Shown piece after piece: positions 59,626 through 64,000 of a stretch of DNA of 64,000 nucleotides; the first letter of the stretch is position 1; each line of letters starts with the position of its first letter. The stretch comes from Candidatus Bathyarchaeota archaeon. GTDB taxonomy: Archaea > Thermoproteota > Bathyarchaeia > TCS64. The stretch covers positions 544,001 to 608,000 of the forward strand of contig CAVYLP010000006.1 in NCBI GenBank assembly GCA_963769425.1. The letters run 5' to 3'. Under the pieces are notes generated by a model. The model worked only from the letters and a program-made list of their open reading frames with translations, was not told where the DNA came from and made no database searches. The translations under genes and the position numbers were made by a program.

Positions 59626-60615
59626 CTACTTTTCGAGCCCGCTCATCTTCCTAATCTGCCTGCCGACCTTCTCGATCTCGAGACCGTCGACCTCGTCCAT
59701 GAGTGCCTTGAAGTGCTTTGAGCCGTCCTTGTACTCGGCCATCCACTCCTTCGCGAACTTGCCGCTCTGGACATCCTTGAGCACCTTCCTCATGTTCTCC
59801 TCGACGCGGTCGTCTACGATGACAGGGCCGACTGTGAGGCCACCCCACTTCGCCGTGTCACTCACGGCGCGGTACATCCCACCGATGCCCGCCTTGTAGA
59901 TCAGGTCGACGATGAGCTTCAGCTCGTTGCAGACCTCGAAGTAGGCAAGCTCAGGAGGATAACCCGCGTCGACGAGGACCTTGAAGCCCCTCCGGATCAG
60001 CTGATCTGCGCCACCGCAGAGGACCGCTTGCTCGCCGAATAGGTCCTCCTCAGTCTCGTCCTTGAACGTGCTCTCGAGAACCCCAGCCTTACCGCTGCCC
60101 AGCGACTTGGCGAGGGCGAGCGCCGTCTGAAGCGCCTTCCCCGAGGCGTCCTGGTGGACGCTGACGAGGGCCGGGACACCGAAGCCCGCCTCGTACTGGC
60201 GGCGAAGCTCAGCGCCTGGGCTCTTCGGGGCGACCATTATCACATCGACGTCCTTCGGCGGCTTGATGGCGCCGTAGAGGATGTTAAATCCGTGTGCGAA
60301 CTGGAGTGTCTTCCCCTTCTTCATCGCGAGGGCGACCTCCTCCTTCCACACTGTGGGCTGAGCCATGTCGGGGACGAGCATGAGGACTATGTCCCCCTGC
60401 TGCGCGGCCTCGAGTACCGTCGTCACCTTGACGCCGTCTGCTTGGGCCTGCTTCCAGCTCTTGCCCCCGGGGCGGAGGCCAACGACGACGTTGACCCCGC
60501 TGTCCTTCATGTTGAGGGCCTGCGCCCTCCCCTGACTACCGTAGCCTATGACGGCCACCGTCTTGCCCTTCAGAACCTTGTCGTCTATGTCCTTATCGTG
60601 GTATACCTTCACCAT
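59626..60615 (-). CDS. ilvC: Ketol-acid reductoisomerase
   Basis: IGYGSQG, FAHGFNI, VAPKSPG, DLFGEQAVLCGG, AYFE, SDTA. Confidence 0.97.
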   Translation of the reverse strand: MVKVYHDKDIDDKVLKGKTVAVIGYGSQGRAQALNMKDSGVNVVVGLRPGGKSWKQAQADGVKVTTVLEAAQQGDIVLMLVPDMAQPTVWKEEVALAMKKGKTLQFAHGFNILYGAIKPPKDVDVIMVAPKSPGAELRRQYEAGFGVPALVSVHQDASGKALQTALALAKSLGSGKAGVLESTFKDETEEDLFGEQAVLCGGADQLIRRGFKVLVDAGYPPELAYFEVCNELKLIVDLIYKAGIGGMYRAVSDTAKWGGLTVGPVIVDDRVEENMRKVLKDVQSGKFAKEWMAEYKDGSKHFKALMDEVDGLEIEKVGRQIRKMSGLEK

Positions 60616-60619
60616 AGTG

Positions 60620-61126
60620 TCACTTCTCCAGCTTTAGCCGCCCCTTCTCGACGGCCGTGACGCCCGTCCTAGAGACCTCCTCGACCCCTATGGGCTTAAC
60701 GGCCTCGAGGAACGCGTCTATCTCCTCAGACTCACCCGTGACCTCGGCTATAAGGTTGTCCGGCTCGATATTCAGGATGAGGCCGTGGTAGTCGTTCACC
60801 AGCTTGAGGGCCTCCTCCCTCGCCATCGGGTCGGTTGTTGTGAGCTTCACCAGCGCCAGCTCCCTGTTGACTGTGCGTAGCGGGTCGAGGCGCTTCACCT
60901 CGATCACGTCCACCATCTTGTCGAGCTGCTCGACCACCTGGTTGACTCCGCGGGCGTCCGCCTGCACGACGATGGTTATGCGGACCGTGTCGTCGTCGAG
61001 CACCGTCCCAGCCGTGATGCTGTGTATGTTGAAGTTCTTCCGACGGAACATGTTGCTTATGTTGAACAATACACCCGGCCTGTTCTCGACGAGGAACGCG
61101 ACAACGTGCATCTCACTCATGGTCAT
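60620..61126 (-). CDS. ilvN: Acetolactate synthase small subunit
   Basis: VENRPGVL...FRRKNFNI, QLDKMVDV, RELALVK, SRTG. Confidence 0.93.
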   Translation of the reverse strand: MTMSEMHVVAFLVENRPGVLFNISNMFRRKNFNIHSITAGTVLDDDTVRITIVVQADARGVNQVVEQLDKMVDVIEVKRLDPLRTVNRELALVKLTTTDPMAREEALKLVNDYHGLILNIEPDNLIAEVTGESEEIDAFLEAVKPIGVEEVSRTGVTAVEKGRLKLEK

Positions 61127-62814
61127 GCCTCCAGGAGCGCGTCCTTCAGCCCCGCGCCCGGCGGGACTATCGGGTACACGTTCTCCTCCGGGTCAATCGG
61201 GACATCGATGACGGTCGAGACATCGCTCTTGATGGCGCGCCTGACGGCTGCTTGGAAGGATTCGAGGGTGTCGACTCTAACCCCCTCAGCGCCGTACGCC
61301 TCGGCGAGCTTCACCATGTCGGGGTTCCCCTTGAGCTTCACCGCGGAGTAGCGGTGGTCGAAGAAGAGGCGCTGCCACTGTGCGACCATGCCGAGCATGT
61401 GATTGTTCAACACTACCACCACGACCGGAAGCTCCTCCTCTACGCTCGTCGCCATACTGTTCTCCGTCATGCCGAAGCTACCGTCCCCCGCTATATCGAC
61501 GACGGGTACGTCTGGCCTCGCGGCTTTAACGCCAATAGCGGCTGGGAAGCCCCAGCCCATCGTGCCGAGGCCTCCACTAGTGAAGAATGTCCTCGGGTCG
61601 TAGGCGTCGTAATGCAGAGCGGCCCACATCTGACACTGCCCAACCTCAGTTGTGACAATCGCCTCCCGCGGGAGAGTGCTTCGAAGCGCCTTGATAACGT
61701 CTGGTGCCCTTAGGTAACCCTCATTGTGCCCATTACCGTTCGGGTTAACCTGACAACGGAACTCAGCCACCTTCTTGCTCCACTGAGAGCCCACCTCCCC
61801 GCCCGCGCGGAGCTTACTCACGTTATAGAGGAGGCCGCGGAGGCCGAGGGCGGCGTCCCCGACGACGCGGGTCACGGTTTCGACGTTTTTGTCTATCTCG
61901 CTCCTGTCGATGTCGAGGTGGATGATCTTCGCATTTGGCGCGAAGCTCTTCACAGCGCCCGTCGTCCTGTCACTTAGGCGCGCCCCAACGATGAGTAGTA
62001 CATCCGCCTCGGGGACGAGGTTGTTCGCCGCCTGTGTTCCGTGCATCCCGCATAAGCCGAGGCTGAGCGGGTGGTCTGCAGGGAAGGAGCCCTTGCCCAT
62101 GAGTGTGGTCGCCGTAGGCGCCATGAGATACTCGCTGAGGGCGACGAGCTCGCGTGTCGCGCCAGAGTTAATCACACCGCCACCAGCGACCACGACGGGT
62201 CTCTGCGCCTTCGCGAGGAGCGTCGCAGCCCACTCAACCTCGCGTGGATCTGGCTGATAGTTAGGGTGGTACCCCCTGAGCTTAACGGTCTCCGGGAAGC
62301 TGATGTCCTCCACGTCGGTCGTGACATCCTTGGGGAGATCCACGAGGACGGCTCCCCTCCTCCCCGACGAGGCGATCTGGAAAGCGGCCTTAACCGCCCT
62401 CGGTATCTCCGATGCCTTCCTCACCTGCATGTTATACTTAGTCACGGAGGCGCTACACCCGATGATGTCGACTTCCTGGAAAGCATCAGTACCGATCGTG
62501 GCGCGTGTAACCTGTCCAGTGAAGGCGACGACGGCGCTGGAGTCGATGTGAGCTGTAGCCACACCGGTGACGAGGTTCGTTGCCCCCGGGCCCGAGGTCG
62601 CGAGACATACACCGACGCCGCCTGTGGCCCTTGCGTAGCCATCAGCCATGTGCGCAGCCCCCTGCTCATGCCGGGCCAGAATGAACCTGAAGTCACCATT
62701 TAGTATCTCGTCGCAGAGCGGGATGACGACACCGCCAGGGAGCCCGAAGACGTGCTTGACGCCCTCCATCTCGAGGGACTTGACGAATGCCTTAGTACCA
62801 GCCATCTCAACCAA
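61123..62814 (-). CDS. ilvB: Acetolactate synthase large subunit
   Basis: FGLPGG, RHEQGAAHMADGYAR, TSGPGATN, FQEVD, GQCQMW, SGGLGTMG, GDGSF; start TTG 62814 (or ATG 62805) after GGAGG. Confidence 0.96.
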   Translation of the reverse strand: MVEMAGTKAFVKSLEMEGVKHVFGLPGGVVIPLCDEILNGDFRFILARHEQGAAHMADGYARATGGVGVCLATSGPGATNLVTGVATAHIDSSAVVAFTGQVTRATIGTDAFQEVDIIGCSASVTKYNMQVRKASEIPRAVKAAFQIASSGRRGAVLVDLPKDVTTDVEDISFPETVKLRGYHPNYQPDPREVEWAATLLAKAQRPVVVAGGGVINSGATRELVALSEYLMAPTATTLMGKGSFPADHPLSLGLCGMHGTQAANNLVPEADVLLIVGARLSDRTTGAVKSFAPNAKIIHLDIDRSEIDKNVETVTRVVGDAALGLRGLLYNVSKLRAGGEVGSQWSKKVAEFRCQVNPNGNGHNEGYLRAPDVIKALRSTLPREAIVTTEVGQCQMWAALHYDAYDPRTFFTSGGLGTMGWGFPAAIGVKAARPDVPVVDIAGDGSFGMTENSMATSVEEELPVVVVVLNNHMLGMVAQWQRLFFDHRYSAVKLKGNPDMVKLAEAYGAEGVRVDTLESFQAAVRRAIKSDVSTVIDVPIDPEENVYPIVPPGAGLKDALLEA

Positions 62815-62912
62815 ACGCGGACGCCTCCAAAGAGTTGAATCGTGGACCAAGCAACGATGCTAAGTCCTTTGAGGAACTCACTATAAACTGACTAGACTTA
62901 ACTGGGGCAGAG

Positions 62913-62936
62913 CTACCGAATAAAGCGATACCCCAT
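62913..62936 (-). promoter_or_regulatory. Putative ilv leader uORF2 (MGYRFIR*)
   Basis: ATG directly after the uORF1 stop, preceded by GGAGGGTGG. Confidence 0.5.
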
Positions 62937-62981
62937 CTACGCCACCCTCCACTCGGCGGCCATGATAAAGCGATACCCCAT
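62937..62981 (-). promoter_or_regulatory. Putative ilv leader uORF1 (MGYRFIMAAEWRVA*)
   Basis: Preceded by GGAGATTGGTG; first 17 nt identical to uORF2. Confidence 0.5.
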
Positions 62982-63125
62982 GACACCAATCTCCAAACGG
63001 TATGTAGCCTGAAGAGTGATAGCATCGAATAAAAGGTTTGTGAAAGTAATTATAATACACACAATCAGCTCCCCACTACACTTAACACCCCAGAACGCCC
63101 GATAACAAACATAGAGGCGGAATAG

Positions 63126-64000
63126 ATGAGTAAGCTGACCTACCTAGAATGTTCGAAGTGCGGTGAACACTATGACGCCGATCAGGTCCAGACTGTCTGC
63201 AGGAAATGCGGCAAACCCCTCTTCGCGAGGTACGACCTCGAAGCCGCGAAGGAGACGATGACGAAGCGGGAGCTCGTCGGGAGGGTCTCCTCGATGTGGA
63301 GGTACAGGGAGATACTCCCCGTGAGGAAGAGCGAGAACGTGGTCACCCTAGGGGAGGGATGGACACCGCTCACGCCTACGTCGCGCCTCGGTGAGACTCT
63401 TGGCCTTTCCAACCTACTCGTCAAGGACGAGGGTATTATCCCCACAGGAAGCTTCAAGGCGAGGGGGCTATCGGCTGCCATCAGTAAGGCGAAGGAGCTC
63501 GGAATTAAGCGAGTCGCGCTCCCCTCCGCTGGAAACGCCGCTGGCGCAATGGCCGCCTACGGAGCGCGTGCTGGCCTCGAGGTCTATGTTTTCATGCCTG
63601 AGGATGCACCAAAGGTCAACGCCGTTGAGTCAGATGTCGTCGGCGCCAAAGTCGTCTACGTCAAGGGCCTCATAAGTGACGCGGGGAAGCTAGTCAAGGA
63701 TGGAATCCCTGAGATGGGTTGGTTCAGCGTCGCCACCCTCGGGGAGCCCTACAGGGTCGAGGGGAAGAAGACGATGGGCCTCGAGGTCGCGGAGCAGCTT
63801 GATTGGAAACTTCCAGACGTAATCATCTACCCCACCGGCGGGGGTACCGGTATAATCGGGATGTGGAAGGTCTTCGAGGAGTTGGAGGAGATGGGCTGGA
63901 TCGGGAGCGAACGTCCCCGAATGGTAAGCGTCCAAGCCGAGGGGTGCAGTCCCATAGTCAAGGCCTACAGGGAGGGGAAGGAGGAGAGTGAATTCTTCGA
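63126..64000 (+). CDS. thrC: Threonine synthase (partial, runs off window)
   Basis: Own translation: CSKC..CRKC, MWRY, LGEGWTP, KDEG..PTGSFKARG, SAGNA, YPTGGGTG. Confidence 0.92.
   Translation, partial: MSKLTYLECSKCGEHYDADQVQTVCRKCGKPLFARYDLEAAKETMTKRELVGRVSSMWRYREILPVRKSENVVTLGEGWTPLTPTSRLGETLGLSNLLVKDEGIIPTGSFKARGLSAAISKAKELGIKRVALPSAGNAAGAMAAYGARAGLEVYVFMPEDAPKVNAVESDVVGAKVVYVKGLISDAGKLVKDGIPEMGWFSVATLGEPYRVEGKKTMGLEVAEQLDWKLPDVIIYPTGGGTGIIGMWKVFEELEEMGWIGSERPRMVSVQAEGCSPIVKAYREGKEESEFF

Follow-up and report, generated by a model that had tools for sequence, protein, structure and literature searches.

What purpose do two tiny, nearly identical reading frames serve when they stand in tandem in the leader of an archaeal acetolactate synthase gene? 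The question is raised by the ilvB locus of a 64,000-nucleotide stretch of a Bathyarchaeota genome, the whole of which we call the window. Positions below follow its numbering, and ilvB, its leader and its operon are read on the minus strand; the genome itself (G000) comprises 2.55 Mb in 6 contigs. In the window ATGGGGTATCGCTTTAT is found as two exact 17-nt copies, at 62981-62965 and 62936-62920, with a period of 45, and two or more matches were seen in 0 of 100 dinucleotide shuffles (shuffle mean 0.04). Copy 1 opens a first mini-ORF (62981-62937), ATG GGG TAT CGC TTT ATC ATG GCC GCC GAG TGG AGG GTG GCG TAG, which encodes MGYRFIMAAEWRVA and whose TAG abuts the ATG of the second (62936-62913), ATG GGG TAT CGC TTT ATT CGG TAG, encoding MGYRFIR. 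Both copies therefore encode MGYRFI, with a synonymous difference at the Ile codon, ATC in the first and ATT in the second. An earlier reading made from the sequence alone had picked out the repeat, its period, the two upstream open reading frames (uORFs) and the synonymous change, and all are confirmed here on the minus strand, the repeat being conserved in relatives as well as absent from shuffles.

The repeat proves to be one instance of a conserved cassette, in which a start codon lies within a Shine-Dalgarno-like (SD-like) tract, AUGGGGUAUC, and is followed by a 2-nt spacer, a rare UUU codon, a single sensor codon and a nearby stop. On balance we favour the view that the cassette supports a +1 frameshift like that of prfB, triggered by scarcity of charged tRNA, which would deliver ribosomes to the downstream gene. 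The fuller claim, that the ribosome reads charged-tRNA supply through such a shift at UUU-X, where X is an exchangeable Ile, Val or Leu codon, and that the device is ancient and shared by several classes of one archaeal phylum, strikes us as evenly poised.

The +1 frame and the genes it reaches

Counted from the second base of the start codon, the +1 frame (TGG GGT ATC GCT TTA...) is open from copy 1 through copy 2 as far as the gene. At the window locus it extends over 57 codons plus TGA (62807-62980; WGIALSWPPSGGWRRWGIALFGSS...EASAFG), crossing both copies and the remaining leader, and its TGA (62809-62807), which sits within UUGGUUGAGAUG, falls inside the ilvB start region TTG GTT GAG ATG (62803-62814), where stop and start overlap. 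The same relation is seen widely. At 45 of 48 distinct non-fusion loci, upstream of acetohydroxyacid synthase (AHAS), IlvA-like and valine--tRNA ligase-like (ValRS-like) genes, no more than 5 nt separate the +1 stop from a start codon of the long ORF that follows; 28 of the 45 are of the type NTGGYTGAgATG, 7 have an offset of +5 and 10 show an ATGA/GTGA overlap, the offsets being -4, +5 or +1. Stops and starts that overlap or abut in this way are what termination-reinitiation coupling calls for, and such coupling may well operate at these 45 loci.

The median open length is 54 codons in the +1 frame, compared with 13 in frame 0 and 19.5 in the +2 frame, and dinucleotide-shuffled leaders keep the +1 frame open in a mean of 14% of trials (7% for the window locus). 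No alignment can be made between leaders of different families, which nevertheless all follow the +1 stop rule. In one AHAS leader (L016) an indel has altered the phase, and the +1 stop has shifted to overlap the second ATG. IlvA-like leaders have a TGA directly 5' of the first +1 codon, and most other loci have no upstream in-frame ATG, GTG or TTG for this frame, which can therefore be entered only from the mini-ORF.

At a second kind of locus the +1 frame is itself the enzyme. In 42 of 42 loci encoding an isopropylmalate/citramalate synthase-like (IPMS/CimA-like) protein, the enzyme is read in +1 with respect to the start of the mini-ORF; its catalytic DTTLRDGEQ comes exactly 16 codons past the cassette in 37 of the 42, and 25 offer no canonical start codon in frame between DTTLRDGEQ and the stop that precedes it. 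As these loci had been found by motif patterns, the test was redone from the protein side: the top orthologues were taken from 30 genomes of the class, and 27 yielded an anchor. The cassette, as start-N9-TTT-ATY (N6 in one), precedes a gene in the +1 frame in 25 of the 27, and 17 of the 27 lack any in-frame start. Since so many independent assemblies are involved, sequencing error is excluded. One lineage without the cassette (L199) has an ordinary TTG start. The frame that runs from the repeats to the start of ilvB, and the fusion of that same frame to IPMS/CimA-like genes elsewhere, were both overlooked when the sequence was first read; both point to frameshifting.

The fused enzyme passes the cut-offs of NF002085 and TIGR02090, while citramalate models score below theirs; an Ile sensor predicts that it is a citramalate synthase. 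The genome of the window has only a distant IPMS/CimA-like paralogue (46% identity; C3:101099-101632), the cassette-bearing orthologue being present in its genus mates G001 and G010. It does have an IlvA-like gene with an Ile+Ile leader, and the absence of the orthologue may reflect incompleteness of the genome (91%) or another route to 2-oxobutyrate. The +1 peptide of the AHAS leaders of family f4 (L011-L016) starts WGIALSNP..., resembling the N-terminal extension WGIALSNRFP... of the IPMS/CimA-like proteins, which suggests that leader modules may have been copied from the 5' end of the IPMS/CimA-like gene. A paralogue of the IPMS family in family f50 (L249, genome G326) also lacks a canonical in-frame start, and is the +1 frame of ATG AGT ATT CTC CAA GCC TAA; its ATT CTC resembles a Leu-type shift site and may mark a Leu-sensing relative or be due to chance.

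Codon 6 and the structure of the leader

The sensor, codon 6 of the mini-ORF, was compared with the downstream gene at 90 classified loci. All 42 IPMS/CimA-like leaders have an Ile codon here, as do the 4 IlvA-like leaders in each of their two copies, and all 8 ValRS-like leaders have a Val codon. AHAS leaders are more varied, with I (9), I+I (8), V (7), V+I (6) and V+L (6), and the two AHAS paralogs have Val+Leu or Ile sensors. All 7 single-V AHAS leaders also contain a diverged second copy with CUY at codon 6, in one case without ATG; the Leu type is found in 6 of 301 genomes of the class. Of 71 genomes of the family, just 2 have another second base than U at codon 6. Ile and Val codons are told apart by position 16, and this base is constant inside each gene family, although adjacent variable positions flip often, and every regulated gene belongs to branched-chain amino-acid supply. 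Judged by these patterns, codon 6 behaves as a specifier would.

These same patterns bear on the alternative that survives best, namely that entry into the +1 frame, by a frameshift or in some other non-standard way, is real but constitutive and sets a fixed low level of expression, the Ile, Val or Leu codon being no sensor of starvation or acting only to stall the ribosome. The evidence from reading frames alone does not, it is true, demonstrate regulation. Nevertheless, a constitutive device gives no account of a codon limited to three amino acids and sorted by gene family, of its constancy next to positions that flip within families, or of the shared metabolic role of all the genes concerned, and we regard this alternative as unlikely.

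A frameshift triggered by starvation is not the only way in which a sensor codon could act. A ribosome waiting at the Ile codon might instead remodel hairpins in the leader and so expose the ilvB ribosome-binding site, as in translational attenuation of the erm/cat type, or prevent termination of transcription. As expected of an attenuator, the cassette sits in the 5' leader of an amino-acid biosynthetic operon. Copy 1 is followed by a stable hairpin, GCCGCC-gagtggag-GGTGGC (62941-62960; -12.4 kcal/mol, z -3.3), the 3' arm of which is the SD of mini-ORF 2. In addition, alifold applied to seven ilvB leaders of the same genus yields one long-range helix, of 9 pairs, between the segment after copy 2 and the start region of ilvB. 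Finally, GGGGUA of the repeat is able to pair with UGCCCCA, and both TGCCCCA (62909-62903) and a small hairpin, AGTTCC..GGACT near 62878-62863, are present where the sequence-only reading had placed them.

The mutually exclusive hairpins which that reading proposed found no support. Leaders fold no better than shuffles, with z-scores of -0.56 for the whole leader of the window and -0.78; the window leader contains no U-run terminator, and pairing of GGGGUA with UGCCCCA is not general. The long-range helix of the genus has no compensatory changes, and when the segment after the sensor codon was tested for pairing with the gene start at 47 loci, the result did not differ from chance (mean z +0.27; a single locus of the 47 scored below -2). 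Hairpins of differing sequence, averaging -10 to -11.5 kcal/mol with z near -2.6, come after copy 1 and after Val-type cassettes; copy 2 and the IPMS cassettes have none (about -1.6 to -2). Each mini-ORF has one sensor codon, occasionally two (AUC AUA or AUC AUC), and not the several codons of an attenuator. Attenuation also leaves the open +1 frame, the overlap of stop and start, and the start-less fusions unexplained, and we hold it to be improbable. The earlier suggestion of a ribosome- or RNA-mediated switch for branched-chain synthesis therefore stands in part: codon 6 does track the amino acid of the regulated gene, while the attenuator hairpins are unsupported.

Curated RNA families were also considered. 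A scan of 62600-63300 against Rfam, with E-values up to 10, returned only DicF, at 14 bits against a gathering score of 48 bits and with an E-value of 3.7, which we treat as noise. A T-box, or any other curated RNA family, was rejected on the grounds that there was neither an Rfam match nor such a structure.

The Shine-Dalgarno-like tract and the proposed switch

The 3' tail of the 16S rRNA of G000 is GGATCACCTCCT. In copy 1 the internal SD-like tract, GGGGTATC (62972-62979), forms a duplex of -8.4 kcal/mol with it and ends 2 nt before TTT. The pattern is general: duplexes with the tail have a mean of -8.9 kcal/mol, whereas shuffled sequences reach -5.6 and the 14-nt stretches ahead of normal in-frame TTT codons -3.9; in 23 of 31 protein-anchored cassettes, 2 nt separate the end of the duplex from UUU, an arrangement from which a stimulatory role is predicted. 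In the protein-anchored set the start, GGG and TTTAT are invariant (TTTAT in 26 of 26), and positions 7, 10, 11, 12 and 18 vary, almost exclusively by transitions. The common form GGGGUAUC and its variants GAGGGAUU, GGAGUGGAUC, GGGUGGUC and GGGGUGGU all mimic a full Shine-Dalgarno sequence, and the variation keeps the pairing with the 16S tail.

TTT, the codon that follows the spacer, is the rare Phe codon of G000 (5.0 per 1000 as against 30.9 for TTC) and yet is invariant in 26 of 26 cassettes. From the invariance of TTTAT and the rarity of TTT, we propose a first shift site at 62964-62969, with TTT in the P site and ATC, the Ile sensor, in the A site, and a second of the same pattern, TTT ATT, at 62919-62924. 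The genome has a single tRNA-Phe(GAA) and a single tRNA-Ile(GAU). After a +1 move, re-pairing is possible at 2 of 3 positions on UUU_A/G and at 3 of 3 on UUU_C. AUU stands in place of UUU only where the next codon starts with C, in which case two pairs are kept after the move.

The positions of the variable bases allow a different shift to be imagined. The frame could change directly after initiation, at AUG GGG N, by movement of tRNA-Gly from bases 4-6 to bases 5-7, so that Gly-Ile-Ala-Leu would be read and the frame-0 ORF would be a decoy. Positions 7, 10, 13 and 16 are indeed the wobble positions of the +1 codons GGN AUH GYN UUN, the +1 peptide G-[IV]-[AVIT]-L looks conserved, and GGG in this genome is read by tRNA-Gly(UCC). 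The same variation is, however, explained by pairing with the 16S tail, the transitions keeping G-U or A-U pairs. Moreover, none of the 26 protein-anchored cassettes has A at position 10 and 20 of them have U at position 7, though AUA and GGC are common codons in G000, a bias that would be unexpected for neutral wobble in the +1 frame. The variants GUG GAU CGU UUU AUC and AUG GGU GGU CGC UUU AUU allow no early re-pairing. An early shift would also give the wrong sign of regulation and leave the link between sensor codon and gene unexplained. The conservation thus appears better explained by pairing with the 16S tail than by coding for G-I-A-L in the +1 frame, and we find an early shift very doubtful. 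Least credible of all is that a regulatory protein binds the repeat, as DNA (an operator) or as RNA, or that the repeat is a riboswitch or tRNA-binding RNA of unknown type: strong conservation at the nucleotide level, tandem copies and a position in a divergent intergenic region shared with thrC would suit such a site, and tandem protein-binding sites had been kept as an option by the sequence-only reading, but the motif keeps without exception to the sense strand, at 40-46 nt past a TATA box, matches no Rfam family and functions in single copies as gene fusions, and its start codon, fixed phase to the gene, nearby frame-0 stops and open +1 frame would go unexplained.

The switch that we propose, by frameshifting at the sensor codon, would work as follows. 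A ribosome would start at AUG and decode Gly-Tyr-Arg-Phe, placing tRNA-Phe on the rare UUU in the P site while Ile-tRNA is awaited at AUC or AUU. With Ile-tRNA plentiful, the ribosome would continue and terminate a few codons on; after termination in copy 1 it could restart at the abutting AUG of copy 2, the SD of which would otherwise be locked in the hairpin following copy 1, and a second chance would be given. With Ile-tRNA scarce, the ribosome would pause and tRNA-Phe could slip from UUU to UUA, aided by pairing of the 16S 3' tail with the tract 2 nt upstream, in the geometry of the prfB site. The slipped ribosome would then translate the start-less +1 frame through the leader, stop at UGA and restart on ilvB; in the IPMS/CimA-like genes of relatives it would make the enzyme directly. 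Tandem spacing is always a multiple of three, being 45 nt at 16 loci and 42 nt at 8, and a shift at either copy would therefore lead into the same frame. The gap between the first stop and the second ATG at these 24 loci is 0 nt (14) or 3 nt (10). A tandem pair would thus provide either two chances for a shift or an OR gate for two amino acids, Val/Leu or Val/Ile. Unbroken translation of the leader might also shield the transcript from termination factors. What the sequences show is the cassette, its conservation, the relations of the frames, the tie of sensor codon to gene and the complementarity to the anti-SD; we infer that the shift occurs, that its site is UUU-X, that starvation raises it and that translation of ilvB depends on it.

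A number of observations weigh against this switch. Three of the 48 non-fusion loci (L033, L086 and L163) are exceptions to the stop rule. The link between sensor and gene is confounded by the common descent of leader families, so that the counts do not represent independent events, and the patterns used to find most loci fixed much of the motif. In this genus ilvB has Ile+Ile, though the enzyme also serves Val and Leu, and it has a strong SD of its own, GGAGG (62824-62828), 9 nt before TTG and with a duplex of -12.7 kcal/mol, so its translation need not rely on the +1 frame. Of the 3 positions, a slipped tRNA-Phe would pair at just 2 on UUA or UUG, and sequence alone does not pinpoint where the shift would take place. 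The structural results given above tell here too: with a genus-level helix that lacks compensatory changes and complementarity at chance, no conserved structure masking the start is shown, and the post-sensor hairpin cannot be a stimulator of all cassettes, since only copy 1 and those of the Val type have it. In the first of the three exceptional loci (L033, from genome G012 of the same genus), a change of GAGTGG to GAGTTG ends the +1 frame of copy 1 in a TGA 10 codons on, and only copy 2 could act.

Distribution and setting of the cassette

The genome of the window contains four cassette loci, which mark out a regulon. Besides ilvB, its IlvA-like, threonine ammonia-lyase-like gene has a tandem pair with a spacing of 42 and Ile+Ile, its valine--tRNA ligase gene a single copy with GTC at codon 6, and its second AHAS gene a GTC copy with a diverged copy, ATGGGGAATCGCATTCTT (CUU), 45 nt downstream. 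When the whole genome was scanned for start-N9-TTT-NNN joined to a +1 frame, either fused or coupled, 18 matches came up, compared with 6 to 40 for control codons, and nothing convincing emerged beyond these four, the 4 candidates inspected being noise; the IleRS and LeuRS genes of this genome have no such leader. Among related genomes the 16-mer, with at most one mismatch, is found in 34 of 41, while a reversed control pattern gave 2 matches in total. An exact 18-mer scan of one genome per prokaryotic species, with a pattern that admitted only RTY at codon 6, found at least 121 stretches; among the 80 matches listed with titles, 38 are metagenome-assembled genomes of Bathyarchaeia/Bathyarchaeota and the others have bacterial titles. 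Most of the latter are without the cassette architecture and serve as chance controls. Three, titled Krumholzibacteriaceae, Patescibacteria and Desulfaltia (L046, L102 and L114), have a full Bathyarchaeia-type cassette before IPMS-, ValRS- or AHAS-like genes and are probably mis-binned archaeal contigs.

ValRS leaders are sparse at the level of the class, being present at 3 of 29 loci examined in other genomes. Outside the class, the same arrangement is found at 6 of 18 orthologue loci fetched, in two families of the phylum, with the cassettes GTG GGG TGT TAT TTT ATC and ATG GGG TGG TAC TTT ATC ATC; most of the other 12 have ordinary starts. In family f47, of another class of the phylum, two loci (L237 and L239) show two cassettes head to tail with an 18-nt period within one mini-ORF, TTG GGG GGA TCA TTT ATC GTG GGG TGT TAT TTT ATC, a design unlike the 42/45-nt tandem. 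The ValRS gene of G000 (C1:387047-389340, L161/L201) is split into two frames, with 537 aa in the first and a continuation containing one TGA in another, and its LeuRS gene (C6:253316-256223) is likewise split, into 882 + 294 aa; the ValRS ORFs of relatives are unbroken and of 810-950 aa. The splits are probably indel errors of long-read assembly, and arguments about frame from this single genome consequently need checking against relatives.

Around the repeat in the window, the elements of an expressed leader can be recognised. A TATA-like TTTTATT (63028-63034) with an A-rich flank (cacAAACC) like the transcription factor B recognition element lies 46 nt 5' of the first ATG, which places the repeats in a transcribed leader with an inferred transcription start. 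A AAAGCTTTTATT-like box is found 40-46 nt 5' of the first cassette at the four loci of G000 and in relatives, and every true locus has an archaeal BRE/TATA-like box at that distance from its first start codon. The SD-like GGAGATTGGTG of mini-ORF 1 (62984-62994; duplex with the genome's own 16S 3' tail of -7.6 kcal/mol) includes GGAG (62994-62991) and GGTG (62987-62984). These elements and the TATA-like box agree in position with the sequence-only reading, which is also supported in that the uORFs are conserved, in a transcribed and ribosome-accessible leader, the single Ile codon being the informative part.

The regulated operon (59626-62814) consists of ilvB (61123-62814), the acetolactate synthase large subunit (TIGR00118, 719 bits), followed by ORFs that we take, from family features of their translations, to be ilvN-like (60620-61126) and ilvC-like (59626-60615). 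The divergent neighbour is threonine synthase, thrC (plus strand from 63126; NF006050), and both repeat copies lie inside the 320-nt spacer between it and ilvB. A ATTATAAT-like box at 63055-63065 (plus reading), about 60 nt 5' of the threonine synthase ATG, is probably the TATA box of thrC itself, in which case the two promoters are arranged back to back, no more than some 30 nt from each other. A direct repeat of 12 nt, ACTAGACTTAAC / ACTACACTTAAC (62891-62902 and 63075-63086; 92% identity, 184 nt apart), flanks the leader and promoter region and may be due to chance.

Significance and known systems

Little is understood of how archaea control the synthesis of amino acids, and to our knowledge leader-peptide attenuation and T-boxes are essentially bacterial. 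If the proposed switch is real, it would be the first defined translational amino-acid sensor in archaea, and the first natural use of 'hungry-codon' frameshifting as a gene switch. A portable module of 20 nt would make any gene responsive to an amino acid using the ribosome alone, tandem cassettes acting as logical OR gates for two amino acids, and would be a simple part for synthetic biology. It would also explain why many IPMS/citramalate-synthase-like genes, likely mis-annotated, seem to have no start codon; the fused form would be ancestral, copies of its 5' end having been recruited as leaders of AHAS, threonine deaminase and ValRS genes. For the uncultured Bathyarchaeia it would provide a testable model of Ile/Val/Leu balance. 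Among the papers listed by full-text searches, which did not extend to subscription-only literature, none describes the cassette and no title concerns Bathyarchaeia.

The closest parallel is the bacterial release factor 2 gene prfB, which controls itself by a programmed +1 frameshift, the geometry of which would have evolved convergently in archaea. The site in E. coli K-12 reads AGGGGGTATCTTTGAC, its shift-site segment being AGGGGGUAUCUUUGAC, and here too an SD-like tract comes just before a U-rich codon. Both systems have a short frame-0 ORF with a near stop and a productive +1 product; in both a G-rich SD mimic that pairs with the 16S tail lies 2-3 nt before a U-rich P-site codon, with a slow sensor codon in the A site, and even the letters overlap, as comparison of AGGGGGTATCTTTGAC with the cassette ATGGGGTATCGCTTTATC shows. 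The 2016 recoding review by Atkins et al. (PMC5009743) describes for prfB a CUU_U site, a rare UUU_U variant and effects of the SD and the E site. The differences are nonetheless considerable. The cassette sensor is a sense codon, AUY, GUY or CUY for Ile, Val or Leu, whereas that of prfB is UGA read by RF2; re-pairing from UUU to UUA/UUG is 2/3; and the regulated genes are not homologous. The cassette begins at an initiation codon, is modular, archaeal and often met in tandem, occurs before several unrelated genes, and mostly works through a leader frame ending on the gene start and not by fusion.

The E. coli operons ilvBN and ilvGMEDA are controlled by leader-peptide attenuators. Bacterial ilv/leu attenuators resemble the cassette in that a translated leader ORF 5' of acetolactate synthase reads the supply of branched-chain charged tRNA, and in that different isozymes respond to different amino acids; a uORF of Corynebacterium ilvBNC is treated in PMC10272879 and PMC11857589. 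They act, however, on transcription, through runs of regulatory codons and terminator/antiterminator hairpins, while in the cassette a mini-ORF has a single sensor codon, a second reading frame is present and there is no terminator.

In 'hungry codon' frameshifting, as proposed here, the frame changes when the A-site aminoacyl-tRNA is limiting, and pheL was once a candidate for its productive use. Of starvation frameshifting with functional products the same review states that 'no examples are known' (PMC5009743), and pheL frameshifting is described there and in PMC3082878 as incidental; the cassette would, by contrast, be a selected and conserved use. Antizyme also employs a regulatory +1 frameshift as a metabolite sensor in a feedback loop, but it is eukaryotic, senses polyamines and depends on a stop codon and a pseudoknot. 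T-boxes likewise have a single specifier codon, which corresponds to the amino acid of the synthetase or biosynthetic gene they control; there, uncharged tRNA is bound directly by an untranslated, structured leader, unlike the cassette, which has neither such a structure nor an Rfam match. The cassette would work in the manner of prfB autoregulation and antizyme, and would meet the physiological need that ilv/leu attenuators and T-boxes meet in bacteria, but it belongs to none of the four.

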